In this document: piece by piece, positions 1-55,066 of the stretch
How the letters are laid out: the number at the start of each line of letters is the position of its first letter
How positions within the stretch are numbered: position 1 is the stretch's first letter
Origin: a virus
Taxonomy: Duplodnaviria > Caudoviricetes
DNA: 64,000 bases
Direction: 5' to 3' (one strand)
IMG/VR virus record: IMGVR_UViG_3300014019_000001
Span: 32,001-96,000 of that record
Notes under the pieces: generated by a model
The model's database searches: none
What the model saw: the letters and a program-made list of their open reading frames with translations, nothing else
What the model was told of the DNA's origin: nothing
Made by a program: the position numbers and the translations under genes

Positions 1-257
1 GCTTGATTTACAGCCGCCTGCTGCACCGCTGCCTGCACCTCATGAGCGCGCGAGCCGCGACGAATGCCGTTGTTCTTGAAGCGCTGCGAGAGATTCTGCC
101 GGGAGACGCCGAATTCGTCGGCAAGTTCAACGACGCCTTTGATACCCAGCTCGTAGGATTCCACGATCTGTGCCCATTCAGCATCGGTGAGCCGGCGACT
201 CTTTTTGTCCTCGCCGGCGGAGTTCTCATCCGAACCGGAGAGTGTTTCCTCTGACAT
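1..257 (-). CDS. N-terminal part of an HTH protein, probable terminase small subunit (runs off window)
   Basis: Not in the ORF track; read manually as MSEETLSG...LTDAEWAQIVESYELGIKGVVELADEFGVSRQNLSQRFKNNGI. HTH pattern, GGAAGGGA RBS, follows the ParB/ABC/GNAT operon. The terminase call is from context. Confidence 0.55.
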   Translation of the reverse strand, partial: MSEETLSGSDENSAGEDKKSRRLTDAEWAQIVESYELGIKGVVELADEFGVSRQNLSQRFKNNGIRRGSRAHEVQAAVQQAAVNQ

Positions 258-295
258 ATTCCCTTCCAGCATAACTAAGCAGTGACTTACATTCT

Positions 296-403
296 AGCCG
301 GAGGAGTTTTCCCTGTCCATCTTCATACTAAGTTATTAATTACTTACTTTAGAGTAGATAATAACTAAGTATGAAAGAGGCGAGGGAAACATCTCCGGCT
401 CGT
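296..403. repeat. Imperfect ~105-bp inverted repeat with AT-rich core (copy 1)
   Basis: AGCCGGAG..TTCCCT..TTCATACTAAGTTATT / AATAACTAAGTATGAA..AGGGAA..CTCCGGCT; related copy at 13387-13511. Confidence 0.7.
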
Positions 404-664
404 CTAACGTCCTCCGGATCGGAACCAGTCGTAGGCCGAAGGAGTGGGACGAATGATCTTGAACATTCCGGCGCGCTCCAGCTCGATGATGCCGCGCTTT
501 ACCAGGAAACGGAGACTGGTCCGGAGAGACCCGTAGGCGCAGGTGTATGGCAGCGCCTGGTGCAGCTCCGTCACGGTGTAAAAGGTTCCGTTGTCGGCTG
601 CCTCCAGGACAAGGTGCATGATCTGGCGCTGCTTGTCGGTGCGCTTTGGCTTAGATCGGCGCAT
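404..664 (-). CDS. Small winged-helix DNA-binding protein
   Basis: TVTELHQAL...SLRTSLRFLVKRGIIE pattern; overlaps the GNAT stop codon. Confidence 0.65.
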   Translation of the reverse strand: MRRSKPKRTDKQRQIMHLVLEAADNGTFYTVTELHQALPYTCAYGSLRTSLRFLVKRGIIELERAGMFKIIRPTPSAYDWFRSGGR

Positions 665-1532
665 GGAGCTTCAGCCTCTCGTTCGGCCCTTGGAGATCGA
701 ATTGCGTGATCGGTAGACGCTCCGGAACGCTGCCCTTCGGGTCCGGGCATTGCCAGACGCCATACATGGGCGAAGCCAGGCTCATCTGCTGAATGCCCTT
801 GATCACTTCGACGGTCGACATGGCGGCCACGCGCGCCGCTCCGCGCTCCCGGTTGGCGCCGGTGTTCTCCAGCGCGGAGTTGCGCAGATAGAAGTCCTTG
901 CACGCCTGGATCAGCTTCTCGCGCGCCGCCGGGCTCTTAGCCTCGATCTCGGCGACAATCGCCAGGTAGTCCTGCGGCGAGGCTTCGAAATGAGAACGGA
1001 AGAACTTCATGCCAGCGTCGAATTTGTTGGCGTTCATCGGCTCCACAAAGCGGAAGCCGGCCTTCTGGCCGAAGAGGTTGAACTTCGACATGGACGACTG
1101 GATCTCCATGAAGGTGTTACCCTCCATTCGCGAGACCAGGTTCATCATCCGGTAGCCGACGCCGATCCCGCGATACATAGTGTCCACCACGAAGCGCGAG
1201 ATCACTCGGAAGTTCTGGTTGATGTAGAGATAGCGGTTGGTGTTCGTGAGCCTGGTTTCGCCAGAACCGGGCGCCAGCTTAGGAAACACCAGATGGCGCT
1301 CCCGGAGCATGCCCTTGGGCGAACCGGTCACGATCACTCCGATGGTCTCCTCGCGCAGTCGCAGGCGCCAGAAACGGGGGCCGAAAGGCAGCGCCTCTGC
1401 CTTGTAATGGAGATCGTGAAGAAGATCCCAATCGGTCTTGTCCCCACGCTCGACCATCATTTCGCGGGCAAGCGCGAAATTCGCTCGTGGGTTCGGGTTG
1501 CGCTCGATCAGCGTGTCGGTGTCAAGCATCAC
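651..1532 (-). CDS. GNAT-fold acetyltransferase (Mom/TmcA-like), putative DNA base-modifying enzyme
   Basis: Acetyl-CoA motif A ISRFVVDTMYRGIGVG and N-terminal LHY; same operon as the ABC ATPase and ParB-N genes. Confidence 0.7.
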   Translation of the reverse strand: MMLDTDTLIERNPNPRANFALAREMMVERGDKTDWDLLHDLHYKAEALPFGPRFWRLRLREETIGVIVTGSPKGMLRERHLVFPKLAPGSGETRLTNTNRYLYINQNFRVISRFVVDTMYRGIGVGYRMMNLVSRMEGNTFMEIQSSMSKFNLFGQKAGFRFVEPMNANKFDAGMKFFRSHFEASPQDYLAIVAEIEAKSPAAREKLIQACKDFYLRNSALENTGANRERGAARVAAMSTVEVIKGIQQMSLASPMYGVWQCPDPKGSVPERLPITQFDLQGPNERLKLHAPI

Positions 1533-1746
1533 GTCGAAACCAGCCCTTGCGCTTCCCTGTGCGAATGAGCGTGCGCCAGAAGTCGCTGAGTGATGCGCCC
1601 AGCCAGATCAGCAGCACAGCATAGAGACTATTGGCGATCAGCTCGCTCATCCGTCGTCCTCCTCGCCGCGACGCAGCCGCACTTCGAGGAAGGCCAGAAA
1701 CAGGATGATCACGAGCAGAATGGCGAGGAGCTCGACCCAGCTTCCT

Positions 1747-1959
1747 TCACTTCCGGCCATTAACTTCCCTCCACCACTTCAGGGTTTTGTCACAGTGATT
1801 GAGATCCACGGTGTCGAGGATCTGGCAGAGCACGCAGCCCCACCTCTTCCGATCGTCGCGTGCGCGAGCGGCTCGATAGGACAGCGTTTCGGTGGGCGCG
1901 CCGCCGAGCAGCGCATTCACCAGGATTGAAACCGCTACGGCGATCGAGCGGACGGACAT
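1747..1959 (-). CDS. Small phage protein (TLSYRA...CxxL...HC motif)
   Basis: ORF track 1747..1995; start trimmed to MSVRS. Confidence 0.55.
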   Translation of the reverse strand: MSVRSIAVAVSILVNALLGGAPTETLSYRAARARDDRKRWGCVLCQILDTVDLNHCDKTLKWWREVNGRK

Positions 1960-2037
1960 GCGCCCTACCCCGCCAGGACCGGCGCGACGGCGCATCCACT
2001 CAGAAAGAGCGAAATAGCGAAAACGGCAAAGCGCGAT

Positions 2038-2364
2038 TTAGCCATTTCCGACCCGTCGACCGGTGTTGTATTCGACCTGAACGGCGCGATCGTCCCAGAA
2101 CTCGATGAGACCGAGATCCTTGACGCAGGTGATCGGAAGGGTCCGGCCAAACTGCATCATGCAGAACACGTTGATCGCCGGCGCGTAGTTCTCGTTGGTC
2201 GAGGCGCGCGCCGTGAAGATGCGCACGTCCTTGCCTTCGTCGAGCCACTGGCGCACTCGGCCGACCATCGCGGGAATGGGAGCGCCGACGTGATCGATGC
2301 CGCGCCAGTGGTCGTATTCCGCCAGCGTGCCGTCGAGATCGACGCCGATCCAGCCCTTAGCCAT
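2038..2364 (-). CDS. HAD-superfamily phosphatase (PNK 3'-phosphatase-like)
   Basis: IGVDLDGTLA motif I, FTAR motif II, K...FWDDR motifs III/IV. Confidence 0.8.
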   Translation of the reverse strand: MAKGWIGVDLDGTLAEYDHWRGIDHVGAPIPAMVGRVRQWLDEGKDVRIFTARASTNENYAPAINVFCMMQFGRTLPITCVKDLGLIEFWDDRAVQVEYNTGRRVGNG

Positions 2365-2653
2365 CGACGATCTCCCAATCCTCTGCGAGGATATCGGTCT
2401 GCGAGGCGAGCCAGCCGGTCACGGTCGAGCCGTCAGCAGCACGCAGATTGAGGTTGGGCATACGAACCGACGTGCCGCGATCGCCTTCCTCGAAGAGGGA
2501 GTTGCGCACGCCGCCGGTGAGCAGCGCATTCGTGGTGAGCGGCGGCCGGGAACCCTTGTTGAGGAAGACGAACATCCCCTTTCCGTTCCAGCCGTCACGG
2601 GCGACACGCCCGCCGCCCGACTTCAGGTGTTCGATTGCAGCTCCGAAATTCAT
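2357..2653 (-). CDS. DUF2829 protein, Tad2-like anti-defence sponge
   Basis: MNFGAAIEHLKSG..VARDGWNGKGMF ... WLASQTDILAEDW, the signature of DUF2829. Confidence 0.8.
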   Translation of the reverse strand: MNFGAAIEHLKSGGGRVARDGWNGKGMFVFLNKGSRPPLTTNALLTGGVRNSLFEEGDRGTSVRMPNLNLRAADGSTVTGWLASQTDILAEDWEIVDG

Positions 2654-3294
2654 GTCATTTCCTTCCGTTCGACTTCGACACGCTCGCGAAAACGCTTGGT
2701 GATCGTCAGATCAGGGCCAAGCTCCTCGCCGAGGTCCGTGTGGGTGGTTGCGACCATGAAGGTCTTGCCGAGACGTCGGGCGACCTTCTGGATGTTGAAC
2801 GCCACGATCTTTGCCGTGACGCGATCAAGGACGGCGCCGAACTCGTCTGCGATCCAGACGTCGGCGTCCTGCTCCATGATTTTTGCGAGCTTCAGTCGGT
2901 AGCGCTGGCCGTCCGACAACTCCGATGGTTTGCGAATGTAGATCCAGGCGTCGGAGATGCCGGCTTTCGCGAGCAGATCGGTCGCTTCGACAGTGGTCTT
3001 GCCCACAAGGTCGATGACCGGGCGCTCTTCGAGCTGGATTTCACCGAGATCGGCGATCCTGAGCCCCTGCCCTGCCATCTGGGTCTTCAGATCGCGCAGC
3101 AGCAGCGACTTGCCGGAGCCCGACTGGCCGGTGATGTAGACGACATCGCCTTGGTTCACATCGATCTTCAGGTTGTCGTAGATGACGAACTTCTTGTCCG
3201 ACAGCGCCAGGCCAAAGCTCTCACCGATTTCGAGCACGCGGGACGTGCGCTCCACATTGCTCTCGAATGCGCGGGAGATCGTGTAGGTCGTCAT
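2650..3294 (-). CDS. Stand-alone ABC-type ATPase
   Basis: Walker A GQSGSGKS, signature LSDGQRYR, Walker B IADEF, H-loop ATTH; no permease nearby; start trimmed to MTTY. Confidence 0.9.
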   Translation of the reverse strand: MTTYTISRAFESNVERTSRVLEIGESFGLALSDKKFVIYDNLKIDVNQGDVVYITGQSGSGKSLLLRDLKTQMAGQGLRIADLGEIQLEERPVIDLVGKTTVEATDLLAKAGISDAWIYIRKPSELSDGQRYRLKLAKIMEQDADVWIADEFGAVLDRVTAKIVAFNIQKVARRLGKTFMVATTHTDLGEELGPDLTITKRFRERVEVERKEMT

Positions 3295-3659
3295 TCCATG
3301 TCCACCAGGATTTCGTTCTGAACGATGTCGAGGAGTGCGGCCTTCACGGTTTCCAGGTAGCCGATGAGCTTGCACGCCGAGAGGTCGGCGTGATCGTCGT
3401 TCGGCAGCACGAGATCGGAGAAGAAGCACTTGTCCTGGGCGTTCCAGCCCACAATGAGCGCGCCAGAGTAGCGGCCGTCGTAGACCATCTCCGCGAAGTT
3501 CTCGACGAGCTCCACGGTGTCTGCATCCGGCTCGGGGGCCTTCAGTTCGTCCGGCAGCTCTTGCTCGACCTCTGCGAGCTCCTCGTTCGGCACCTCGCGG
3601 CGCGTCTTGATCGAGATGATCTTTGCCTTGGGAATTTCGTCCTGCGGGATGTCGCTCAT
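3291..3659 (-). CDS. Hypothetical protein
   Basis: Acidic 122-aa ORF, translationally coupled to the ATPase. Confidence 0.65.
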   Translation of the reverse strand: MSDIPQDEIPKAKIISIKTRREVPNEELAEVEQELPDELKAPEPDADTVELVENFAEMVYDGRYSGALIVGWNAQDKCFFSDLVLPNDDHADLSACKLIGYLETVKAALLDIVQNEILVDME

Positions 3660-3673
3660 ACGTAAGTCATTAC

Positions 3674-4327
3674 TTATGAATTGAGTTCGATGAAAGCGAC
3701 CAGGGCATCAGCGCCCTTGAGGGCGGTTTCGTCCTCAACGCGGCTCATGAAGCTTCGGATTGCTCGGGACTGGGCGATGGTCACACGCTTGAAGCCAAAT
3801 GCATCGGCGATCGGCGCGGCCGTATCGTCCACCTCGTCGGCCTTCTTCGCATTGGCCTGCTGCTGGGCTTCGACGGCGCCGGAGATGTCCTCGACGAAGA
3901 AGTCCGTAGAGATTTCGCCAAGGTCGGAGGTCGAGAATTCCAGCTCTTTTTCGTCGAAGCCGAGGGTGAGCAGATCGATGTCAGTCTCGGCGAGCCGGCG
4001 CAGTTCGTCCTGGATCAACGACATGTCGTAGGACGCGCCTGTCACCCGGTTGTCGGCGAGGCGCAGCGCGTCGGCTTGCTCCTTGGTCAGATCCGAGCGG
4101 ACGATGACCGGCACCTTCTTCCGGCCGAGCTTGATGGCTGCCAGACGCCGGCCATGGCCGGCGATGATCTCGCCGTTGGTCCAGACCACGATCGGTTGCG
4201 TCCAGCCGTAGGTGAGGATCGCCTTCGCGAGCTTTTCGATCTCGTGCTCGGGATGGTTCTTGGCGTTGAGCGCGTAAGGGATCAGCTTATCGACGTCCCA
4301 AAGCTCGATCTTCGGCTGATCACTCAT
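3674..4327 (-). CDS. ParB/Srx N-terminal domain protein
   Basis: LIPYALNAKNH, GWTQPIVV, IIAGHGRRLAA, LADNR; start trimmed to MSDQP. Confidence 0.9.
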   Translation of the reverse strand: MSDQPKIELWDVDKLIPYALNAKNHPEHEIEKLAKAILTYGWTQPIVVWTNGEIIAGHGRRLAAIKLGRKKVPVIVRSDLTKEQADALRLADNRVTGASYDMSLIQDELRRLAETDIDLLTLGFDEKELEFSTSDLGEISTDFFVEDISGAVEAQQQANAKKADEVDDTAAPIADAFGFKRVTIAQSRAIRSFMSRVEDETALKGADALVAFIELNS

Positions 4328-4493
4328 CGTAGTCTTTCCTGTAGATGTCCCAGAGCTCCTCGTTAGAGGGCTGCCGGGTGTTGATTTTCGGTTCGAAGAA
4401 CTCCCCTGCCCCACAGGCCCGGCACTCCGGGCGAACGATCCTGGGGTTGAAGTAACGGCATCCGGTGCAGTCGGAGAACTTCGGCTCTTTCAC
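4320..4493 (-). CDS. Small CxxC...CxxC zinc-binding protein
   Basis: Manual reading from a GTG start: ..FSDCTGCRYF..PECRACGAGEF..; fills the gap between the two ParB-N genes with overlapping stop/start. Confidence 0.5.
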   Translation of the reverse strand: MKEPKFSDCTGCRYFNPRIVRPECRACGAGEFFEPKINTRQPSNEELWDIYRKDYDE

Positions 4494-5218
4494 GCGGCGA
4501 TCTCCGCCAGCGCTGCATCGAGGTCTGCTTCGTCGACGGCATTCTGGGTGCTGCGGGACTCGAACTGACCGACAAGGAGATGAACCAGAGCATCGCCGGC
4601 GTTCGTCAGGTCGTCCTGCGTGGTGAAGCCCTGTGCCTTCATCGTTTTGGCGATGAGCGCTGTGAGGCGCTCGGCGTCGCCCAAGGAAACCTTGAAGCGC
4701 ATCTGGGTGTGGGTCTTGGGCGCCTTCGCTGCCGGCGGCTCCGGGTCAGGCTGATCGCCCGGCGACTCGAAATTCCCGTCAATGTCCAGATCATCGAGCG
4801 CTATATCAGTGCTTGAGAAGATCGTTGTCAGGTCTTCGTCGGCAAAGGGCAGGAAACTCTGAAGCTCGCCAACATCACCGAGGGTCTTGAGAAGTTCGGC
4901 GAAAGACAGTGTGTCGTCGGCGCCGTAGCGAGCATTGTCGAGAACAGAGATTTCCTTGGCTCGTTTGTCGTCAATCTGCCCGAGGTTGACGACAGGAATC
5001 TCCGAAAGCCCGATCTTCTTCGCGATGTGCCAGCGGTGCTCGCCGCCGATGATCTCGTATGTGCCGTTTACTTCACGCACGACCACCGGCTTGAAAAGGC
5101 CATTTCGTTTGATCGATTCCTCAAGCTTCGCCTCGTTGTCGGGGGAGACGATGTTGGTGTTCCAGGAATTCGGAACGAGCTTTTCGGGATCGAGATTGAG
5201 CAATTGCGGTTGCGACAA
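4490..5218 (-). CDS. ParB/Srx N-terminal domain protein
   Basis: LVPNSWNTN, LEESIKRNGLFKPVVVR, IIGGEHRW. Confidence 0.9.
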   Translation of the reverse strand: MSQPQLLNLDPEKLVPNSWNTNIVSPDNEAKLEESIKRNGLFKPVVVREVNGTYEIIGGEHRWHIAKKIGLSEIPVVNLGQIDDKRAKEISVLDNARYGADDTLSFAELLKTLGDVGELQSFLPFADEDLTTIFSSTDIALDDLDIDGNFESPGDQPDPEPPAAKAPKTHTQMRFKVSLGDAERLTALIAKTMKAQGFTTQDDLTNAGDALVHLLVGQFESRSTQNAVDEADLDAALAEIAA

Positions 5219-5294
5219 TGGTTCATCCTCTGATAAGTAATCTATTACTTACCACATAACCGAAAGCCTGCAAGAGGCAATGAGGAAAATTTGA

Positions 5295-6887
5295 ATGGCT
5301 GTTCTTCAGCTCGCCCACAACGCAGTCGCCGCCAAGCTGATCAATCCGCCGGCTGAGGTTGCCCAGGCAACGGCCGACCTGCTCTCCTACGTCGTGGATG
5401 GCGCCGATCACATCTGGTCGGTCAATTCAGGGCGCTGGGATGGCCGGTCGAGTTTCTACGACACGACCAAGCACGCCTTCCCAGCCGGTTTCGTCTATCT
5501 GGTTCACGCAGAACTCACCAAACGGGGCCACACCGTTCATCTCGTTCGTAAGCCGCACGCCCCTCCCCTCGGCCCCGAGAACCCCATCGTGGATGAGTTC
5601 GGGAATGACGATCCGCGTTACGACTACCAGATCCGGGCGCTGCGCCAGGTCGAGAAGCATGGGCGCGGGATCATCCAGGTGGCCACCGGCGGCGGCAAGT
5701 CGAAGATCGCCAAGCTCATCATGGCGCGATACCGCCGGATGACCCTCTTTCTGACGACGCGCGGCATTCTGCTCTACCAGATGGATGACCAGCTCAAGAA
5801 GCTCGGGCTCAACACCGGCCAGATCGGCGACGGCGAGTTCAAGGTCACGCGGGGTGTGAACCTTGGGATGGTCCAGACGCTGGTTCAGGCGCTTGAGGTT
5901 CCGGATCTGCACGCGGAACGCCGGGCGGTCGTGAAGTCGATCCATCTTTCGAAGTCGAAGGACGAGAATCTCTCCAACGAGGAAATTAGCAAAATCGCTA
6001 AAGAGCGATTTGACGAAAAGACGAAAAAGCGAAATCAGATCCTGAAGATTCTGGATATGATCGAGGTGGTCATCGGCGAGGAAGCTCACGAGGCCGGCGG
6101 CGAGAGCTATTACAAGATCCTGCAGCACTGCAAGAACGCCACGATCCGGGTCGCGCTAACCGCCACGCCGTTCATGCGCGACAGCGCCGAGGACAACATG
6201 CGCCTGATGGCTGCATTCGGTCCGAAGCTGATCATCATTACCGAGAAGATGCTGATCGAGCGGGGCATCCTGGCAAAGCCCTACTTCAAGTTCGTGGACT
6301 GCCGCCCTCACCCCAAGCTGCGCCGCACGAGCCCGTGGGAGCGCGCCTACAAGCTCGGCTACATCGACAACGACTTCATGCTTCAGGAGGCTCTCCGCGA
6401 CGCTCTGAACGCCAAGCGCGTCGGCCTGCCCGTGATGGCGCTGTGCGTGCGCAAGGAGCACGGTCAGAAGATCGAAGCCTTCTATACCGCCAACGGACTG
6501 AAGGCGAAGTTCATCTATGGTGAGTCCAAGATGGAGATCCGCCGGCGCTTCATCGAAATGCTGGCAACCGGCGACATCGACGTTCTGATCGGCACCACCA
6601 TCCTCGATGTCGGCGTGGACGTGCCGGCTGTCGGTCTGGTGCAGCGACTCGGAGGCTACAAGGCCGAGATCCAGCTTCGCCAGCAGATCGGCCGTGGGCT
6701 TCGCGCCAAGAAGAACATCCCGAACTATGCGTTCATTGCCGACTACTCCTGCAACATCAACACGACCTTGAACGAGCACGCGCGCCAGCGCCGGGCGATC
6801 GTGGAAAGCACACCTGGCTTTGCCGAAGGCATTCTGCCCGCCAATCAGGACTTCCCCTGGGCGATCTTCGAGAGGAAAGCGGCGTGA
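5295..6887 (+). CDS. Superfamily 2 DNA helicase (UvsW/ResIII-like)
   Basis: YQ motif, ATGGGKS, EEAH, LTATP, ILDVGVDVP, QQIGRGLR. Confidence 0.9.
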   Translation: MAVLQLAHNAVAAKLINPPAEVAQATADLLSYVVDGADHIWSVNSGRWDGRSSFYDTTKHAFPAGFVYLVHAELTKRGHTVHLVRKPHAPPLGPENPIVDEFGNDDPRYDYQIRALRQVEKHGRGIIQVATGGGKSKIAKLIMARYRRMTLFLTTRGILLYQMDDQLKKLGLNTGQIGDGEFKVTRGVNLGMVQTLVQALEVPDLHAERRAVVKSIHLSKSKDENLSNEEISKIAKERFDEKTKKRNQILKILDMIEVVIGEEAHEAGGESYYKILQHCKNATIRVALTATPFMRDSAEDNMRLMAAFGPKLIIITEKMLIERGILAKPYFKFVDCRPHPKLRRTSPWERAYKLGYIDNDFMLQEALRDALNAKRVGLPVMALCVRKEHGQKIEAFYTANGLKAKFIYGESKMEIRRRFIEMLATGDIDVLIGTTILDVGVDVPAVGLVQRLGGYKAEIQLRQQIGRGLRAKKNIPNYAFIADYSCNINTTLNEHARQRRAIVESTPGFAEGILPANQDFPWAIFERKAA

Positions 6888-8325: not shown

Positions 8326-8973
8326 ATGAGCGAATTAGTGATCGCATGCCTGTCCCAGAAGGGCGGCGTCGGCAAAAGCACCCTCGCCCGTTTGATCGCC
8401 CGGACATACGCCTCGGCCGGCTGGAGCGTGAAGATTGCCGACTTCAACACGAAGCAGCTCACCTCGGTCGACTGGGTTGGAACACGGATGAAGCTCGGCC
8501 TTGAGCCGGTCATCCACGCCGAGCCCTATGCCTCGGTCAAGAACTTCAAGCGCGAGAACTTCGACCTGATCGTCGCTGACGGTAAGCCGGACAGCGACGA
8601 CACCTCGCTTGCCATCGCGCGCATCGCCCAGCTCATCGTCATCCCGACCGGTCTCTCCACGGACGACCTCAAGCCGCAGATCCTGTTCGCGAACGAGCTG
8701 GTGCAGAAAGGCGTGCCTCGGGATCGCATCATGATCGTCCTGAACAAGGTGACGGAGAGCGAAGCCTCGGTGCAGGAGGTTCGCCAGATCCTGCGCTCGA
8801 CCGGCTATCAGATCGCCGAATACGACCTGACGGCGAAGACTGGCTATCAGAAGGCTCAGGACGCCGGCCGCTCAGTCGCCGAAACGACCTTCCCAACGCT
8901 GAACGAACGCGCCGACGGTCTCGCTTCCGAGATCGTGGTCAAAATGAATGAACTGTCGGAGAAAGCAGCATGA
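8326..8973 (+). CDS. parA: ParA partition ATPase (type Ib)
   Basis: SQKGGVGKST deviant Walker A; short, with no N-terminal HTH. Confidence 0.92.
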   Translation: MSELVIACLSQKGGVGKSTLARLIARTYASAGWSVKIADFNTKQLTSVDWVGTRMKLGLEPVIHAEPYASVKNFKRENFDLIVADGKPDSDDTSLAIARIAQLIVIPTGLSTDDLKPQILFANELVQKGVPRDRIMIVLNKVTESEASVQEVRQILRSTGYQIAEYDLTAKTGYQKAQDAGRSVAETTFPTLNERADGLASEIVVKMNELSEKAA

Positions 8974-9209
8974 CGAAGACACCGACGAAAGCTCCGGTCC
9001 CGAAGCCTGCAAGTCTGAAGATGGATTTCATGGCCCAGGCCACGCAGGCGGCCGCCAACAACATGTCCGACAAGCTGAAGGATATGAGCTTCAAGGTGCC
9101 GGAGGAGTTTCATCGCCGCTACAAGTCGGCGGCCGCAATGCATGGTATCCAGATGAAGGACATCCTTGAGCAGAGTTTCGAGCTCTGGCTCAAGCGCGCA
9201 GACCAATAG
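8970..9209 (+). CDS. Ribbon-helix-helix partition protein (ParG/omega-like)
   Basis: 79 aa, coupled to parA; MSFKVPEEFHRRYKSAAAMHGIQMKDIL RHH pattern. Confidence 0.75.
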   Translation: MTKTPTKAPVPKPASLKMDFMAQATQAAANNMSDKLKDMSFKVPEEFHRRYKSAAAMHGIQMKDILEQSFELWLKRADQ

Positions 9210-9325: not shown

Positions 9326-9778
9326 TCAATCACTGTGCTTCACCGAACGCACCTCGCCGCCGGTCCATGGGTCGACCTCAATGGTCAGCCGGATCGCGTC
9401 CTCGGCGCTCTTGCCCAGCTTCATCGCCATGTAGGCGCTCTGCTGCCCGGAGCCGATGGCGTAGAAGTCGGCTTTGACCGGTCCTGTGAATGCCCGGCCG
9501 TCGTTCCAGTAGAAGGCAGATCCGTCCGGCTCGACGACCAGCGCCTGAACAAGGTGCTCCTGATCGGCCACAGCGCGCTCCAGGGCGGCGTCATCCGGTA
9601 GACTGTTCAACCAGGCCAGAAAGTTGCTGGGCGCGCCCACGACGCTGCTGGAGACGCCCACAAGGCGGCCGCCGCGCAGGCGAAAGACCTTGGTCTTGTT
9701 CCCGATGGGATGCTTGTCGCCGGAATAGGCCCGGCTGTCACCTGCGAGGATGCCGGCGCGATAGGCGATTGTCGTCAT
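9326..9778 (-). CDS. Ntn-hydrolase, HslV/proteasome-beta-like peptidase
   Basis: Starts MTTIAY..LAGDS; K; AIGSG; D.WTGG. Confidence 0.75.
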   Translation of the reverse strand: MTTIAYRAGILAGDSRAYSGDKHPIGNKTKVFRLRGGRLVGVSSSVVGAPSNFLAWLNSLPDDAALERAVADQEHLVQALVVEPDGSAFYWNDGRAFTGPVKADFYAIGSGQQSAYMAMKLGKSAEDAIRLTIEVDPWTGGEVRSVKHSD

Positions 9779-10116
9779 GCAAGATCGCCCAGAATGCGCT
9801 TCGGCTGCATGATCGCCCGGTTGAGGCGATAGAAGGCGTCCTCGACGTGCCGGCGCGCGATCTGCACGGAAGCTTGGTCGATCTCCTGGCTGTCCCGGTT
9901 GCGAACGTGCTCATCGACGCGGCGCAGAACCTTTTCCTCCAGGATCTTGTTCTCGTTCACCATGTCGATCTTCCACTGCTCGACGGTCTTGGCGTAGCCG
10001 GCGACGGGCAGGCCGGAATGACCGGGAATAGGCGAGGGCGCCTTCTGGTCGTCAAAGAGGGGAAGTTGATGCGTGTCGGCAACCTCGGCGGCACGCTGCT
10101 GCTCGGTTCGGTCCAT
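9775..10116 (-). CDS. Acb2-like anti-CBASS nucleotide sponge
   Basis: VAGY...IDMVNENK...IARRHVEDAFYRLNRAIMQP matches the Acb2 pattern (GY..ID.MN..K...RAIAQP); start trimmed so it does not overlap the tRNA. Confidence 0.7.
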   Translation of the reverse strand: MDRTEQQRAAEVADTHQLPLFDDQKAPSPIPGHSGLPVAGYAKTVEQWKIDMVNENKILEEKVLRRVDEHVRNRDSQEIDQASVQIARRHVEDAFYRLNRAIMQPKRILGDLA

Positions 10117-10142
10117 TCGATGATCCTGTGGGGTAGGGGAGT

Positions 10143-10218
10143 TGGCTGAGGAGGCTGGGCTCGAACCAGCGACAGGGCGATTAACAGTCGCCAGCTCTAC
10201 CATCTGAGCTACTCCCCA
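10143..10218 (-). tRNA. tRNA-Asn(GTT)
   Basis: TGGGGAGTAGCTCAGATGGTAGAGC..GGCGA CT GTT AA TCGCC..GGTTCGAGCC..GCCA; 76-nt cloverleaf. Confidence 0.95.
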
Positions 10219-10299: not shown

Positions 10300-10551
10300 T
10301 TGATGGGAAGATCCTAAGTAAGTGATTACCTACAGTCAAGCGCGATTTAGCGAAAAGGCTATTTGGCTATAGAGCGCTATCGCTAGGAGAGGTGGCTACA
10401 GGCAGTTCCGGATCTGTGGGGCCGGGGTAGACGCAACTTAGGTCAAGGTCCATCTCGTCGGGACACAGAGGAGAGGTGGCTAGGATGCCGGGGAGTTGGT
10501 GAGCGATGGAGGTATCCCCTTGAAATCACACGCAAATCTCTAAGACTTCGC

Positions 10552-10580
10552 TTGCACTACTCGCAGCAAACGTCTAATGT
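10552..10580 (+). promoter_or_regulatory. Sigma70-type promoter of the GG-free gene
   Basis: TTGCAC (10552-57), 17-nt spacer, TAATGT (10575-80). Confidence 0.65.
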
Positions 10581-10720
10581 GTATTCATCAACAGAGAGCA
10601 AGTAGCTCAGTTGATTTGAAGCAAGCGCTTCAAGCTCTTTGACATTCGAATAGATGACATGCGACGCATCCCGATTGAGCGCGTTCATGTCACAGAAAGC
10701 TAATATTTCATCTTCAATAG

Positions 10721-10738
10721 TAAGTCATTACTGACTTA
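10721..10738. promoter_or_regulatory. 18-bp palindromic operator TAAGTCATTACTGACTTA
   Basis: Member of the dispersed TAAGTMA-N4-TKACTTA family; lies just upstream of the GAGAGAG RBS. Confidence 0.7.
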
Positions 10739-10760
10739 CACAACATGAGAGAGAACGAAC

Positions 10761-11336
10761 ATGACTGACAATAACAACGTATTCTCGACCGCTCTTAACG
10801 CTCGCGTTGACGCTGCTGTCAAAGCTGACAAGATGAGCGAGAGCAACCGTGAGAAGCTTCGCAACTTCGCGAAAGAGTGCAACAAGTCTGAAAAGCTCGT
10901 CGCTTTCTTGAGCGCGTGCGCTGTTGACGTGCGCGTATTTGAAAACGACGTCTACGAGATCGACAAGCTGCGCAATCTGTCGCGCTTCGCAGTCGATGAA
11001 ATCGCAGCGCGCGATTTCAACGAAATGAACAGATGCGTGTTCCTGACAGCGCTCGCTTTCGAACGCGCTGATATCGCGTTCACGAGAGAAGACGCGACAC
11101 ACGCTTGCAGCGCGCATTACAAAATCAAAGACGCGAAAAAGCGCGCGCTGACTTCGCAGAACGCAAAGACTGTCGCTGACAGCACAGTCGCATCGCAGCA
11201 TAGAAGCTCGCTCAAAGCGCTTGAAGCGCTGAACGTGCTTCGCAGCGTCAACAAGAGCGAGTTTCGCATGAACCTGCAAAGCGATGCGACGATTAAGCTC
11301 GCAGCGAAATTCAATATCGACCTGACGGCTAAGTAA
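10761..11336 (+). CDS. Gly/Pro/Trp-free protein, paralog of 12351..13136; putative immediate-early DNA-binding regulator
   Basis: 191-aa ORF with promoter and RBS; shares DVYEIDKL/NVYAADKL, AF..A...FT.E.A and TV...T...Q..S...AL with the paralog. Confidence 0.8.
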   Translation: MTDNNNVFSTALNARVDAAVKADKMSESNREKLRNFAKECNKSEKLVAFLSACAVDVRVFENDVYEIDKLRNLSRFAVDEIAARDFNEMNRCVFLTALAFERADIAFTREDATHACSAHYKIKDAKKRALTSQNAKTVADSTVASQHRSSLKALEALNVLRSVNKSEFRMNLQSDATIKLAAKFNIDLTAK

Positions 11337-11422
11337 GCACTTACTGCTAGAGCGCTAGAAATAGCGCTCTAGCTATTTCGCTAAATAGCCCAACCGGGCA
11401 TCCCGCGCCCCTGGAGCCACCC

Positions 11423-11999: not shown

Positions 12000-12285
12000 C
12001 CATGGAAGCCCACGGAGCCCCGTGGAGAGCGTTTCCCATGGTCGCATGAGCGCTGGCCCGTCCGAAGGGCCAAACGCGCGTCCTGGGCCGCCTGTGCCAA
12101 TATGCGCCCCATGGGGTGCCATGGCGAAAGCCCGAAATCAGGAAATAGCGAAATCGGGAAAGGAATACGAAGGTGCTGGTCCTACGGCCGACCAGCACCG
12201 GATCCCATGGAGCCCACCGGTTCCCCTAAGCCGCTCCGCCTGAATTCGCCCTAGGCTCACAATCGCCGCCCATGGAAACCCATGG
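12000..12285. repeat. Phased CCRYGG array
   Basis: Sites start at 12000, 12010, 12020, 12036, 12109, 12119, 12205, 12270, 12280. Confidence 0.75.
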
Positions 12286-12350: not shown

Positions 12351-13136
12351 TTACGCCGCCAGCACCTCCTGGAGGCGCTTGGTCTGCGGCGTGTCGGTCA
12401 GCTCGTAGACGGGCGCGCGGAACGTGCCGGAGTTCTTGACGATGCCCATCGTCTGGAGAGCCGTCATGGTCGAGGACGTCTGCGTCGACATGGTGCCCGG
12501 ATCGACGGTGTGGCGGATGAGGATCTTCTGCATGGCGGCGCTGACCTTCACCTTGTCGCAGGCTGCAGCCTTCGCCATCTCCCCGGTGAACTTCTCGCCG
12601 GCGGCGCGGAAGGCGAAGAGGCTCTTGCAGATGGCGATGTTGATCTTGTTGGTCAGGGCGCCGTCCCGGAGACCCTTCACCAGGTCAGCGAGCTTGTCCG
12701 CCGCGTAGACGTTGAAGCGGCTGCCTTCCGAGACGGACCGGTTGATGAAGTCGGGCTCGACCTGGGCGGCGATGAGGATTGCCGCTGCGGAGGGCAGGGT
12801 GAGCTTGGCGCGCGTCTTGTCCAGGCTCTTGTGGATCCGCTCGTTGTTCGGGTTCTTGGTCTTCTCGTAGGTCGCCCGGTCGTCGAAGCCCTTGGCGACC
12901 TTCTGCGCCATTGCCAGCTTCTGCTCGTCCGTGTAGCTGTCAGCGATCTGGGGCAGGGTGAGCTCGACAGCGCCGTCGCCGGCCGGGCCGGGGTCAGACT
13001 GGACCGTTTCCGAGACTACGACAGTATTGCCGTCGCCCGTTTCGAGACCGGCGAGAATAGCAACTTCGTGATCCGTGATGACTTCCTCGGATACGACGGT
13101 CGCCTGTGCCTTCTTTGCGTTGTTGTTCTTAGCCAT
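12351..13136 (-). CDS. Conserved hypothetical protein, probable C-terminal winged helix; paralog of the GG-free gene
   Basis: Start trimmed to MAKNN (AGGA RBS); motif sharing with 10761..11336. Confidence 0.8.
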   Translation of the reverse strand: MAKNNNAKKAQATVVSEEVITDHEVAILAGLETGDGNTVVVSETVQSDPGPAGDGAVELTLPQIADSYTDEQKLAMAQKVAKGFDDRATYEKTKNPNNERIHKSLDKTRAKLTLPSAAAILIAAQVEPDFINRSVSEGSRFNVYAADKLADLVKGLRDGALTNKINIAICKSLFAFRAAGEKFTGEMAKAAACDKVKVSAAMQKILIRHTVDPGTMSTQTSSTMTALQTMGIVKNSGTFRAPVYELTDTPQTKRLQEVLAA

Positions 13137-13267
13137 TTCGTGTTTCCTTCTCTCTCGTTTTCCTCTCAAGCGCTTCATTGCTCTTGATGATTACAAGATA
13201 GAACGTGTCTCTATGGGTGTCGGCTGGGAAGAACAGGCATGTTGCATGGTAATACAGGACCGTTACT

Positions 13268-13575
13268 CCATGGGACCGGAAGGTTCTCCACGGAGCCCCA
13301 CGGAACGCCATGGCTGACCGTGGAGAGGGGAGGGCGAGCCATGGGCCGGGAAGATGATTTGTCCCTAAGGAGACGGCGCGCGTTTTACGAGCCGGAGGAG
13401 TGCCATTTTAGTTTTCCCTTAATTCGCGTCTCCATACTATGTATATATACCCTTTAAAGACGTAATAACTTACTTAGTATGGAAGAGGCGAGGGAAGCGT
13501 CTCCGGCTCGTGGGTTGGTAGGCGATTCCGTGGGTGGATGGGTTTCCGGCCGTGGAAGTCCGTGGTGAACCTTGG
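13268..13575. repeat. Phased CCRYGG arrays flanking copy 2 of the AT-cored inverted repeat (13387-13511)
   Basis: Sites at 13268, 13288, 13298, 13308, 13318, 13339, 13528, 13550, 13560 and CCTTGG at 13570. Confidence 0.75.
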
Positions 13576-14618
13576 CGCGGCCACCTCACCACCGCTTTTC
13601 GATCGCCCTTCAATCTTCCTAGGCTCTTCGCTTTCTTCACCCTCTACGCGTTCACGCTGTCGCTCACTCTAGCCTCAGTCTCCCTATAGCTCTCCTAGGC
13701 TACGCTCCTTTCTACAGTCGCACGTTCACCTCATACGCACCTGGTCTTCTCCGGCTCGTGCTTCTTCTGGTGATCGCCCTTTCGCTCATTCGGGAAATAG
13801 CTATTTCGTGTGATCGCTATTGCGCTACGCCAGTGTGTTGCCAGTTGCTGCGTCTCCTGTGTGCTGTTTCGCTCAGGGTTGATCACCTGATAGCGTCCAT
13901 GACTCTTCTGCGTGTCGTTGCTGCTCTCGGGCGTGTTTGCTTGCTGGTGAGCTTCTATGCGTCTTTGAGGGTTTCGCCTGTTCATGGCTGTAGCGGTTTA
14001 CCGAAATCGCTTTTTCGCTATTTACGGATTTGGCTGCAAACCTGGTGCTAAGCTAGGGCTAAGGATCCTCTTATTCCGGATAAGAAGGTTGGCGGCCGGG
14101 CCTAGGTTCATTTCGATGGCGAAACGGTATGGAGCCATGGGATTGAGCGCCCGTGGAAGGCCGTGGAGTTGACGGCGCGCAAAGGAAAGGGCAGAGCGCG
14201 GAGAAAGGATAAGCCGCGACATCTGCCCTTTGGTAGGTGCCCAAGCACCCGGCGAGCGATAGTTTGCAGACTACCGCCGCCCTTCCTTTGCCTGACCTGC
14301 CGGGGGAGAAACTCCGGCATTCAGTGCTGTCGGTGTTATTCCACTAGGAGGGCGCATGAATCCCACCTGCTTGCACGACCGCCGACTGCGCGCTAGTAAC
14401 CGCTTACTTAGTTATAGCGGCCGGAGAGAGGCTTGCGCCTATTCTTCGACGGGCTCTGCCTGGTAGTCCTCGAAGAAGTTCTCAACGCCGAGGCGTTTTG
14501 CCTCTGCCTGTGCCTCGGTGATTCCGGCCGATGGTGTTCCGGTCCAGGTGAAGATGTGGACGCGACGCTTGGCCGGTGCGCTGTAGGCGGTGATCTTGTG
14601 GCGCATTGTCATTCCCCT

Positions 14619-14843
14619 TTAGGCCAGTCGGATGATGTCGAAGAGCAGGTGAATGTTGTTCCAGATCTCCTGCTGTTCCTCGGAGCCGTCAGCTACGGGC
14701 ATGACGTCGTTGTTCTGCTCCTCGGCGCGCTGGGCGGCCTCTACCGGGTCGTGGCCGTATTGCGTCGCGTCGATGATTGCCTTGAGGACGCGGTGCTGGG
14801 CTTCCGTCAGCACGATGGTTTTGGTCTTCTTCGGCTTGCTCAT
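14619..14843 (-). CDS. Hypothetical protein
   Basis: GGAG RBS and AACCC-box promoter upstream; start trimmed. Confidence 0.55.
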   Translation of the reverse strand: MSKPKKTKTIVLTEAQHRVLKAIIDATQYGHDPVEAAQRAEEQNNDVMPVADGSEEQQEIWNNIHLLFDIIRLA

Positions 14844-14920
14844 CGCTTGTCTCCGTCTCGCGTTTCGATGATTCACTGTCGCACGACGCGAGACGGGTTG
14901 CGGGAGGGCCGTGACGGCTG

Positions 14921-15211
14921 TTATCGGGTGCGCAGGTAGTCGTAGTTCCGCAGGTAGTTGCGGATGACAATCGGTGTGAGCTGGGTCAGCACGGCTTCGT
15001 CGTTGATCAGGTCACGCATAGCGGCACCAGTGAGGAACAGGTGCGCCGGCAGGTTCGGCACATGGTTGTTCTGCGGCGAACGCGGGCAGCGGAAGCGAAG
15101 ACGGCGCGACAGCAGTTTGACGCGCCCGACATACTCGCCGTTGACATACGCCTTGGCGAGTTCGTGATCGATGGTGTCGTAGGTGACGTTCAGGGCGATG
15201 GGCTTTGTCAT
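14921..15211 (-). CDS. Hypothetical protein
   Basis: Start trimmed to MTKPI; coupled to the upstream ORF. Confidence 0.5.
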   Translation of the reverse strand: MTKPIALNVTYDTIDHELAKAYVNGEYVGRVKLLSRRLRFRCPRSPQNNHVPNLPAHLFLTGAAMRDLINDEAVLTQLTPIVIRNYLRNYDYLRTR

Positions 15212-15537
15212 GTTCGATACTCTCCGGTTTTGTGATGGCGGAACAGCATGGTGGCGGGGCACCAGATCCAACCTTCTCGCGCCATGGCTTGGCGATGCTC
15301 CTCTTCCAGCTCGCGGCGGCGCTTCGTCTCGGCCTCCTTCTGGCGCGCCAGGAGCTGACCTTCCGGACTCTCGGTAAACTGAGTGTCCTTGATCCACCTC
15401 TCGGCGTCGGCGTAGCTGTAGGTCGTGTAGCAGGGGGTCAATGACCAATTCTTGAGCGGCCATGGACCGAGCGCCTTGCGGACGAAATAGGTGATGGAGG
15501 TGCCGGAGGCGCGGGGCTCGATCTTGTATTCAGCCAT
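15208..15537 (-). CDS. Hypothetical protein
   Basis: GGAGAG RBS. Confidence 0.6.
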   Translation of the reverse strand: MAEYKIEPRASGTSITYFVRKALGPWPLKNWSLTPCYTTYSYADAERWIKDTQFTESPEGQLLARQKEAETKRRRELEEEHRQAMAREGWIWCPATMLFRHHKTGEYRT

Positions 15538-16232: not shown

Positions 16233-16862
16233 TTAGGGAGTCGTCTTGGACTGCAGGTAGTGGCGATAGTAGCCGGTGCGCTCCACGGGCTCGAACTCGA
16301 TGAGTTCCTCGGAACTGATCAGCGCCGGCAGACCTTCCTTCAGGACCTTGGCTGCATTCTCACCGGTGATCTGGTGAAGGACGATCGCCTTCACGCTGAT
16401 GGTGGGCACGGCATCCGGGTTCTTCGACCATGCCTTTGCCTGGACAGCGCGCACCTGGCGAGTGACCTCCCGGAGGGTCGGGAGTGAGTAGGTTTTGCCG
16501 CCGTGCTGGAATTCGTAGATCGTGACGCCCTTGGCTCGGCCTGACTTCCTCTTGGCCCGTTTGGCGCGGGGCGGTTTCGCCTTGGCAGCCTGGCGCCGGA
16601 TCTCAGGAAGGTTGTTATGCGCCCGGCGGCCGGCATCGGTCAGCTCCACACCGCCCGTTTCGTTGAAGGCGACGAAATCGATGCCTAGGAGCTTTCGGAT
16701 CAGCACAGCGCCCACGAAGCGGCCGGCGGCCGGCTTGCTGGTGTGGTTGTTGCCTACACCCCAGACGTTGAAGCCAGCCGGGTAAAGCGCGCCCTCTCCG
16801 AGGAGACGAAGGGCGGATTTCATGGCTGGGGTGACGATGACGTCTTTTCCGGATTCGCTCAT
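16233..16862 (-). CDS. Hypothetical basic protein, possible winged helix
   Basis: VELTDAGR wing motif, Lys/Arg-rich linker. Confidence 0.55.
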   Translation of the reverse strand: MSESGKDVIVTPAMKSALRLLGEGALYPAGFNVWGVGNNHTSKPAAGRFVGAVLIRKLLGIDFVAFNETGGVELTDAGRRAHNNLPEIRRQAAKAKPPRAKRAKRKSGRAKGVTIYEFQHGGKTYSLPTLREVTRQVRAVQAKAWSKNPDAVPTISVKAIVLHQITGENAAKVLKEGLPALISSEELIEFEPVERTGYYRHYLQSKTTP

Positions 16863-16917
16863 GGCAGTGGCTTATCTTATTGCGGATAAGATGAGCTAGA
16901 TTGCCCGGAAGGATAGG

Positions 16918-54974: not shown

Positions 54975-55066
54975 TTCCGAAACCTTCGTAAGTGCTTACT
55001 TAGTGAATTATAGCACTTTCGCGCAGGAGCACGCGCTTAAAGCGGGATGGGATCAGCCGCTGGCCT

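Follow-up and report, generated by a model that had tools for sequence, protein, structure and literature searches.

We analyzed a 64,000-nucleotide stretch of a Caudoviricetes genome, hereafter the window, comprising bases 32001-96000 of the 116,399-bp virus record IMGVR_UViG_3300014019_000001 (CheckV completeness, 99%). Near its left end, a minus-strand operon encodes two ParB/Srx-N proteins, an ABC ATPase, and a GNAT-fold acyltransferase, and lies between a divergent helicase gene and the packaging genes. The closest GenBank relatives are Rhizobium siphophages of 115-122 kb (RHph_Y2_11, here Y2_11; RHEph10; B1VFA; V1VFA-S; and RHph_X66). A sequence-only reading of this DNA had proposed that the operon writes a CC/GG mark on packaged DNA, an interpretation that, taken as a whole, is partly supported by the results below. 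The gene set it named was recovered in full on the minus strand: both ParB/Srx-N proteins, the ABC ATPase, the GNAT protein, a HAD-like protein, a winged helix-turn-helix (wHTH) protein, and the 5′ end of a TerS-like gene. The core genes and the helicase, with lengths in amino acids (aa) and isoelectric points (pI), are as follows.

5295-6887, plus strand: DEAD/ResIII (UvsW-like) helicase, divergent from the operon (ResIII 63.3 bits, Helicase_C 41.1 bits)
5219-5294, between operon and helicase: putative divergent control region with an AAGTAAT...ATTACTT palindrome
4490-5218, minus strand: ParB/Srx-N protein 1 (ParB1), 242 aa, pI 4.4, core (PF02195 56.2 bits; phrog_723 3e-62)
3674-4327, minus strand: ParB/Srx-N protein 2 (ParB2), 217 aa from ATG 4327, pI 4.8, core (open reading frame, ORF, to 4414; PF02195 30.6 bits; phrog_930 1e-77)
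2650-3294, minus strand: soluble ABC ATPase, 214 aa from ATG 3294, core (ORF open to 3429; PF00005 51.8 bits)
651-1532, minus strand: GNAT-fold acyltransferase with a helical insertion, 293 aa, pI 9.5, core (phrog_886 1e-117; AlphaFold2 model and fold matches)
404-664, minus strand: small basic winged-helix-like protein, 86 aa, pI 10.5, core (Penicillinase_R 21.6 bits against a 22.6-bit cut-off; phrog_900 3e-12)

For the ABC and second ParB genes, ATG 3294 and ATG 4327 are the likely starts.

The operon is a real, widely conserved, mis-annotated, and uncharacterized phage module. Its core, consisting of ParB, ParB, ABC, and GNAT genes and mostly also the wHTH gene, adjoins the helicase, which was divergent from the operon in all relatives examined. 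Six phages (Y2_11, B1VFA, nickie, ANB28, JGB6, and SSU5) share the order helicase, then divergently ParB, ParB, ABC, (small gene), GNAT, (small wHTH), TerS, TerL, and portal. Carriers include the Rhizobium phages, Pseudomonas phage nickie, Stenotrophomonas phage ANB28, Xanthomonas phage JGB6, and Salmonella phage SSU5, and the core gene order beside the helicase is constant across five host genera at helicase identities of 46-89%. We collected further relatives from IMG/VR through the helicase rather than through the GG/CC-free island protein described below; the four core genes were present in every one of the 80 loci whose flank reached them. The module type belongs to SSU5/nickie/RHEph10-type siphophages and phage-plasmids of ~100-120 kb, where it sits just before the terminase genes. 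Among the members of this large family are the SSU5/pHCM2-type phage-plasmids, which are frequent in clinical Salmonella, Klebsiella, and E. coli. The labels that databases attach to the core genes (partition proteins, ABC transporter subunits) are wrong or unsupported.

The GNAT assignment of 651-1532 had to be secured by structure, as the protein falls below the Pfam thresholds (Acetyltransf_10, 16.6 versus 23.6 bits; Acetyltransf_1, 12.6 bits). An AlphaFold2 model built from a 23-sequence alignment reached a predicted local distance difference test score of 88.6. Foldseek matched this model to many GNATs with a probability of 1.0, with NAT10, TmcA, and phage Mu Mom among the matches. VIA structural alignments gave Z scores of 11-11.8 over 125-166 residues; rows no more than one Z unit apart were treated as ties. 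Mu Mom (8bv8) ties for the top Z, 11.8, and has the longest alignment, 166 residues. The aligned range places a helical insertion in the GNAT core at about residues 170-252. The acyl-CoA pyrophosphate loop, R-G-x-G-x-G (YRGIGVGY), is kept in the 23-sequence alignment down to 20% identity, with R121 and G124 invariant and G122 nearly so. A distant fused homologue, P0216, passes the Acetyltransf_1 threshold (25.6 versus 20.7 bits). Together, the model, the fold matches, and the conserved loop uphold the GNAT-fold call despite the sub-threshold profile score. The name given to phrog_886, "ABC transporter ATP-binding subunit", is therefore a mislabel, as its 293-aa member is a GNAT and not an ATPase.

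The ABC ATPase carries intact catalytic motifs (Walker A GQSGSGKS, signature LSDGQ, Walker B VWIADE, H-loop TTH) and is 53-58% identical to its counterparts in nickie, ANB28, and SSU5. Profile and PHROG searches found no permease or transmembrane partner among the operon proteins, in agreement with its description as permease-less. Its coupling to the GNAT protein is documented in other phages. An exhaustive, profile-free search returned 218 GNAT relatives; among the distant ones are proteins of 450-900 aa with an N-terminal ABC ATPase domain and a C-terminal half matching GNAT residues ~10-170. A word-index search for such longer forms had returned none, and it was the exhaustive search of representatives that recovered them. 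The domain order in these fusions is that of the two phage genes. As the two domains occur in single polypeptides elsewhere, in one case together with a B-family DNA polymerase, the ABC and GNAT proteins form one functional unit. The polymerase fusion, a 1260-aa phage protein (L027:8001-11783) composed of B-family DNA polymerase, ABC, and GNAT, lies among PrimPol, RecA, and flap-endonuclease genes; another ABC-GNAT fusion is found in a replication module with DnaB, a DHH phosphoesterase, RNase H, and GyrB. Placement inside replication modules ties the enzyme to DNA metabolism, though to no particular substrate.

Both ParB-like proteins exceed the PF02195 (ParB_N) cut-off of 26.3 bits, the second when scored over the full ORF at 3674-4414. 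In ParB1, only residues 4-117 match solved ParB/Noc structures, and ParB2 likewise matches through its N-domain only (both within residues ~4-123, Spo0J included). By sequence, neither Pfam nor NCBIfam detected a helix-turn-helix (HTH) or C-terminal dimerization domain in either protein. Where segregation ParBs have the GERRxRA CTP-binding box, each retains a putative variant of this nucleotide-binding box across 14 homologues, GGEHRW conserved in ParB1 and GHGRRLA invariant in ParB2. The domain content indicates that the pair is not a partition system. A precedent for another role comes from phage ParB-like proteins without a DNA-binding domain, which activate a post-replicative thymine dioxygenase on double-stranded DNA (2026; PMC13229309). 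This is a direct parallel for ParB-N genes placed in phage DNA-modification loci. In that system, 5mYOX176/ParB176, the ParB-like partner is encoded beside the post-replicative modifying enzyme and is required for its activity on double-stranded DNA. The present module differs in having two distinct ParB-N proteins and, instead of an Fe/2-oxoglutarate dioxygenase, a predicted GNAT acyltransferase with an ABC ATPase. The ParB-N proteins are acidic (pI 4.4-4.8) and the GNAT protein is basic (pI 9.5). A predicted complex of ParB1 and ParB2 with GNAT counts neither for nor against an interaction, as a control scored as high.

When the genome, which is 99% complete, was searched with profiles, neither a methyltransferase (C5, N4/N6, or D12) nor a TGT/DpdA homologue was recovered, so that the operon is the only recognizable modification-type locus. 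The genome encodes a ThyA that is ordinary in appearance. A Tet/JBP profile search gave no match here, but control genomes also gave none.

We consider the best explanation to be that the module is an ATP-dependent, ParB-assisted acyltransferase acting on DNA or on a DNA-bound target, to which we assign a probability of about one in three. In an ATP-dependent reaction, the enzyme would take the acyl group of acyl-CoA and attach it to DNA itself or to a DNA-bound target, either while the genome replicates or late in infection. Both ParB-N proteins would act as nucleotide-switch activators or loaders, like the ParB partner of the phage thymine dioxygenases, and packaged DNA would be protected by the resulting post-replicative modification. 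This explanation is preferred because it accommodates the GNAT fold and the Mom match, the polymerase fusion and replication-module context, the conservation of the core, the ParB precedent, a separate ParA-ParG pair, the acidic ParB and basic GNAT proteins, and the lack of any other modification family. Equating such a modification with the CC/GG signal discussed below is possible but not favored. If the DNA is indeed modified, ATPase-coupled acyl transfer by a GNAT enzyme would join the known phage DNA-modification chemistries, and the module would be the second instance in which ParB-like proteins activate an enzyme of this kind.

Three further systems offer comparisons. Phage Mu Mom is likewise a GNAT-fold DNA-base modifier and an anti-restriction device. 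No sequence similarity to it was detected, however, Mom works alone without an ATPase or ParB, and the protein described here keeps the classical acyl-CoA loop. The uncharacterized ABC ATPase-GNAT fusions (JGI, "ABC-type ATPase with predicted acetyltransferase domain") are homologous over GNAT residues ~10-170, whereas the two halves are separate genes here and tied to two ParB-N genes. In the DpdA/DpdB 7-deazaguanine system, the DNA-modifying enzyme acts after replication with the help of a ParB-like ATPase; the chemistry here would be acyl transfer rather than base exchange, and the genome has no TGT/DpdA homologue.

Several observations weigh against a DNA-directed enzyme. Proteins and small molecules are the usual substrates of GNAT enzymes, and by fold match Mom, TmcA, and NAT10 cannot be told apart from protein acetyltransferases. 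Where 6-8 kb was fetched on each side, the ABC-GNAT fusions of other phages have no ParB gene nearby, so the ParB partnership would be specific to this lineage. The literature searched reports no modified base for SSU5-type elements or these rhizobiophages, and searches on COG2401, phage ATPase-acetyltransferase fusions, N4-acetyl DNA in phage, and GG/CC-free phage regions returned nothing relevant. Finally, anti-defense passengers (a Tad2-like gene within the operon and an Acb2/Tad1-like gene at 9775-10203) would fit a counter-defense enzyme directed at a host protein equally well.

The last point leads to the strongest alternative, which we hold to be only slightly less probable than the best explanation: that ABC-GNAT acylates a protein or small molecule, in host defense or replication or in the phage replisome or packaging apparatus, with the ParB-N proteins as nucleotide-dependent regulators and counter-defense or host takeover as the outcome. 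Protein and small-molecule N-acetyltransferases (such as RimI, Ard1/Naa, and GCN5) make up many of the closest structural matches, with the protein acetyltransferases scoring equally to Mom; anti-defense genes lie in and beside the operon; and the module is kept with or without the GG/CC-free island. On the other hand, the DNA polymerase fusion and the replication-module placement point to DNA-linked chemistry. Strict conservation of the core over five host genera would also be unusual for counter-defense genes, which turn over fast, as the Tad2-like gene does here.

The position of the module suggests a role in packaging, which we consider improbable. Here, a ParB-like nuclease or CTPase, the ATPase, and the wHTH protein would mark or process genome ends, or load terminase at the packaging site. 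The TerS, TerL, and portal genes immediately follow the module in every case, certain ParB-N families carry a nuclease annotation, and B1VFA has fixed genome ends with 3.6-kb direct terminal repeats (PMC12509600) that need to be generated. This proposal leaves the conserved, acyl-CoA-binding GNAT without a role, however, and the ABC-GNAT fusions of other phages are in replication, not packaging, modules. The operon had been described as running leftward into the packaging genes; that layout holds, but transcription may not be continuous, as a 131-nt gap with a promoter-like site precedes the TerS-like gene. The gap and the site suggest that the packaging genes may form a separate transcription unit, which again speaks against a packaging accessory.

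We then consider the CC/GG signal itself, which stems from a single unit to the right of the operon:

10512-11326, plus strand: GG-free, CC-poor transcription unit encoding a 191-aa protein without Gly, Pro, or Trp (816-base gap between GGs)

The GG-free unit pointed out by the sequence-only reading is genuine, has no equal elsewhere in the 116,399-bp genome, and is conserved in relatives. Its plus strand has no GG and far fewer CC than expected, where the genome averages ~70 GG or CC per 500 bases. This island spans a promoter, a leader, the ORF, and a terminator hairpin that is free of GG and CC. It also occurs in Y2_11, B1VFA, and nickie (1137 bases without GG and CC) and in 39 of the 43 informative IMG/VR loci with helicase identity of at least 51%. 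Coordinates elsewhere include L005:10447-11604, L097:6320-7283, and nickie record 103938-105073, with further examples among L011-L090. The encoded proteins form one divergent family of ~190-200 aa, and the 32 ORFs together contain 0 Trp, 1 Gly, and 4 Pro. Over the same ORFs, sense-strand GG occurs four times in total, and CC occurs in nine ORFs, with up to 10 in one; most have neither. The predicted structure of the island protein is helical, with a winged helix at the C terminus, and resembles no known structure strongly; tblastn against 50,697 phage records gave no match. Island-bearing loci range from 49 to 66% GC, which argues for a cause inside the phage.

Some causes could be set aside. 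Translation or tRNA effects were rejected, since the non-coding leader and terminator are GG/CC-free too. The island is unlikely to be the first DNA to enter the cell: B1VFA has fixed ends, and its island lies at 42.3-43.3 kb of the 122-kb record, assuming that the record starts at a physical end. Subtracting the genes of SSU5 and ANB28 from those shared by this genome and nickie left only an HslV-like peptidase, a structural gene, and shadow ORFs, and no credible writer. The HslV-like peptidase was rejected as an alternative writer or correlate, since the island-poor loci L032 and L053 have it too. A sigma-factor-like gene was likewise rejected as a correlate, not being among the genes missing from both SSU5 and ANB28. 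This sigma-70-family gene lies outside the window (genome 101224-101775, minus strand; L010:18029-18664) and in Y2_11 falls between cobS and Pol III alpha; homologues are present in this genome and nickie, and tblastn detected none in SSU5. CCRYGG sites with an exact 10-bp spacing were found at 12000-12285, 13268-13565, and 14135-14166 (also L005:7798-7849 and 9004-9034). These arrays flank a normally coded 275-aa paralogue of the island protein (12351-13178; BLASTP E 2e-6), as they do in Y2_11. They are present here and in Y2_11 but absent from nickie, as well as from SSU5 and ANB28, and were rejected as a general correlate of the island.

The question is whether the operon is responsible for the island. 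The model proposed earlier holds that the operon acylates packaged DNA at CC (or GG) and that, on entry, the host polymerase can read no gene other than the unit at 10512-11326. In its most developed form, ParB-ParB-ABC-GNAT would be a DNA writer acylating cytosine at CC steps of virion-bound DNA, rendering the incoming genome unreadable and uncuttable. The GG/CC-free winged-helix unit would be a modification-immune starter gene in nickie- and RHEph10-type phages, with SSU5 and ANB28 writing a different or sparser mark. We regard this model as quite unlikely, in either form. In its favor, the island covers a complete transcription unit, is retained across close loci of widely differing GC content, and excludes sense-strand GG more strictly than CC, which would fit a block at template-strand CC. 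In addition, the core operon was present in all 34 island-bearing loci with upstream flank fetched (the flank was incomplete in five more), and searches of the genome turned up no further family of modification enzymes. The asymmetry between strands is modest, however, as most islands are entirely without both dinucleotides.

The distribution of the operon tells against the model. Co-occurrence of the two elements holds in one direction only: an island without the operon was never seen, but the operon without an island is common. SSU5 and ANB28 hold the complete core (GNAT 41-44% and ABC 55-57% identical to this phage) and have no GG/CC-free island anywhere in their genomes, so the operon is insufficient for the island and the proposed specific tie to CC/GG is not supported. 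Across the whole SSU5 genome, no stretch is free of any dinucleotide beyond chance, and the longest stretch without GG and CC in ANB28 is 174 bases; in JGB6 it is 254 bases within the 30 kb fetched. At the syntenic spot beside DHFR, ANB28 and JGB6 have a short depleted stretch (~175-450 bases) upstream of a normally coded ~195-aa gene, a probable orthologue that aligns weakly to the island family (hhalign E 0.1-0.16). These features are at L023:2577-2830 with the gene at 3063-3662, and L098:8984-9236 with the gene at 9436-10011, and may represent a partial or ancestral state of the island. Three close relatives (L032, L053, and L059) retain the operon, with GNAT identities of 58-72%. At the island spot, L032 has 17 GG or CC per 400 bases at ~16300-16900 (mean 56) and L053 has 9 at ~14700-15450 (mean 40), and both stretches look like decayed islands; L059 shows no depletion within 8 kb. 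Six loci with helicase identity below 51% also contain the operon and have no island within 10 kb. The GG/CC-free unit is a strong, conserved, and unexplained signal; as carrying the operon is not enough to predict it, its cause can be sought in a smaller field.

A still less probable possibility is RNA acetylation in the manner of TmcA/NAT10, which would place N4-acetylcytidine in phage or host tRNA or rRNA. NAT10-type enzymes favor CCG contexts. The two systems share the logic of an NTPase plus a GNAT domain acting on a nucleic-acid base, NAT10 and TmcA structures are among the Foldseek matches with alignments of ~300 columns, and relatives of the phage carry tRNA genes. The ATPase here is, however, an ABC-type separate polypeptide and not a fused RecD-like helicase, and no DUF1726 was found, which leaves the module outside that family. 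The structural matches have root-mean-square deviations of 14-16 Å (Foldseek E 5e-4 to 1e-3) and are not among the 50 VIA matches listed, and the DNA polymerase fusion fits DNA better than RNA.

The published annotation, in which plasmid-partition ParBs and an ABC transporter ATP-binding subunit serve a plasmid-prophage state, is very unlikely: it has behind it the GenBank and PHROG names, the counting of parB among plasmid-maintenance genes in the B1VFA genome announcement (PMC12509600), and the presence of ParA in this phage and RepC in its relative Y2_11, but the ParB proteins match in their N-terminal domain only, the ParA gene has its own ParG-like centromere-binding partner, tblastn found no ParA in nickie or ANB28 although both have the module, and there is no permease gene, the 293-aa "transporter subunit" being a GNAT. 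The ParA ATPase and the 79-aa ParG-like protein that follows it, at 8326-9209 on the plus strand, form a complete small partition pair, which fits a plasmid-prophage lifestyle.

The remaining features of the locus include genes overlooked earlier, namely the Tad2-like gene, the ORFs at 1747-1995 and 3291-3659, and the small ORF within 1533-1746:

3291-3659, minus strand: acidic 122-aa ORF, pI 4.1, variable (no family match; weak homologues only in L011 and Y2_11)
2357-2653, minus strand: Tad2-like (DUF2829) protein, variable passenger (PF11195 80.6 bits against a 25-bit cut-off)
2038-2364, minus strand: short HAD-like protein, 108 aa, variable passenger (DLDGT motif; PHROG matches to residues 3-58 only)
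1747-1995, minus strand: basic 82-aa ORF with a hydrophobic stretch, variable passenger (phrog_34710, phrog_3342; in only two related loci)
within 1533-1746: small ORF from the ORF listing
291-319, minus strand: sigma-70-like promoter site, TGGACA-17-TAGAAT (10/12 matches; consensus match only)
3-272, minus strand: TerS-like DNA-binding protein, 5′ part, running off the window (genome 31589-32272)

Even close relatives differ in whether they carry the Tad2-like, HAD-like, 82-aa, and 122-aa genes, which marks these genes as insertions and not as parts of the machine. In the Rhizobium branch, passengers (the Tad2-like sponge, the short HAD-like protein, and small ORFs) are inserted into the core. 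The Tad2-like protein matches PF11195 over its full length (profile positions 1-73 of 73) and is, from this match, likely an anti-Thoeris nucleotide sponge. Of the four HAD motifs, the HAD-like protein shows motif I (DLDGT) and perhaps motif II; at 108 aa, it has no Pfam match, and a minority of relatives carry the gene. A wHTH homologue follows the GNAT gene in SSU5. The TerS-like gene has tblastn matches to the gene before TerL in nickie (31%) and SSU5 (28%) and occupies the same position in Y2_11 and B1VFA, its identity resting on this synteny.

Two side observations concern the surroundings. The 142-aa protein at 9775-10203 (minus strand) carries an Acb2/Tad1 hairpin domain that scores 39.2 bits (cut-off, 27 bits), making it a second anti-defense gene of the cyclic-nucleotide-sponge type; it adjoins the HslV-like gene just before the island. 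The palindrome AAGTAAGCACTTAC occurs at 11331-11344 and 54988-55001, two copies versus 0 expected, and related AAGTAA...TTACTT motifs are found in the control region between helicase and operon and in the gap that precedes the TerS-like gene.

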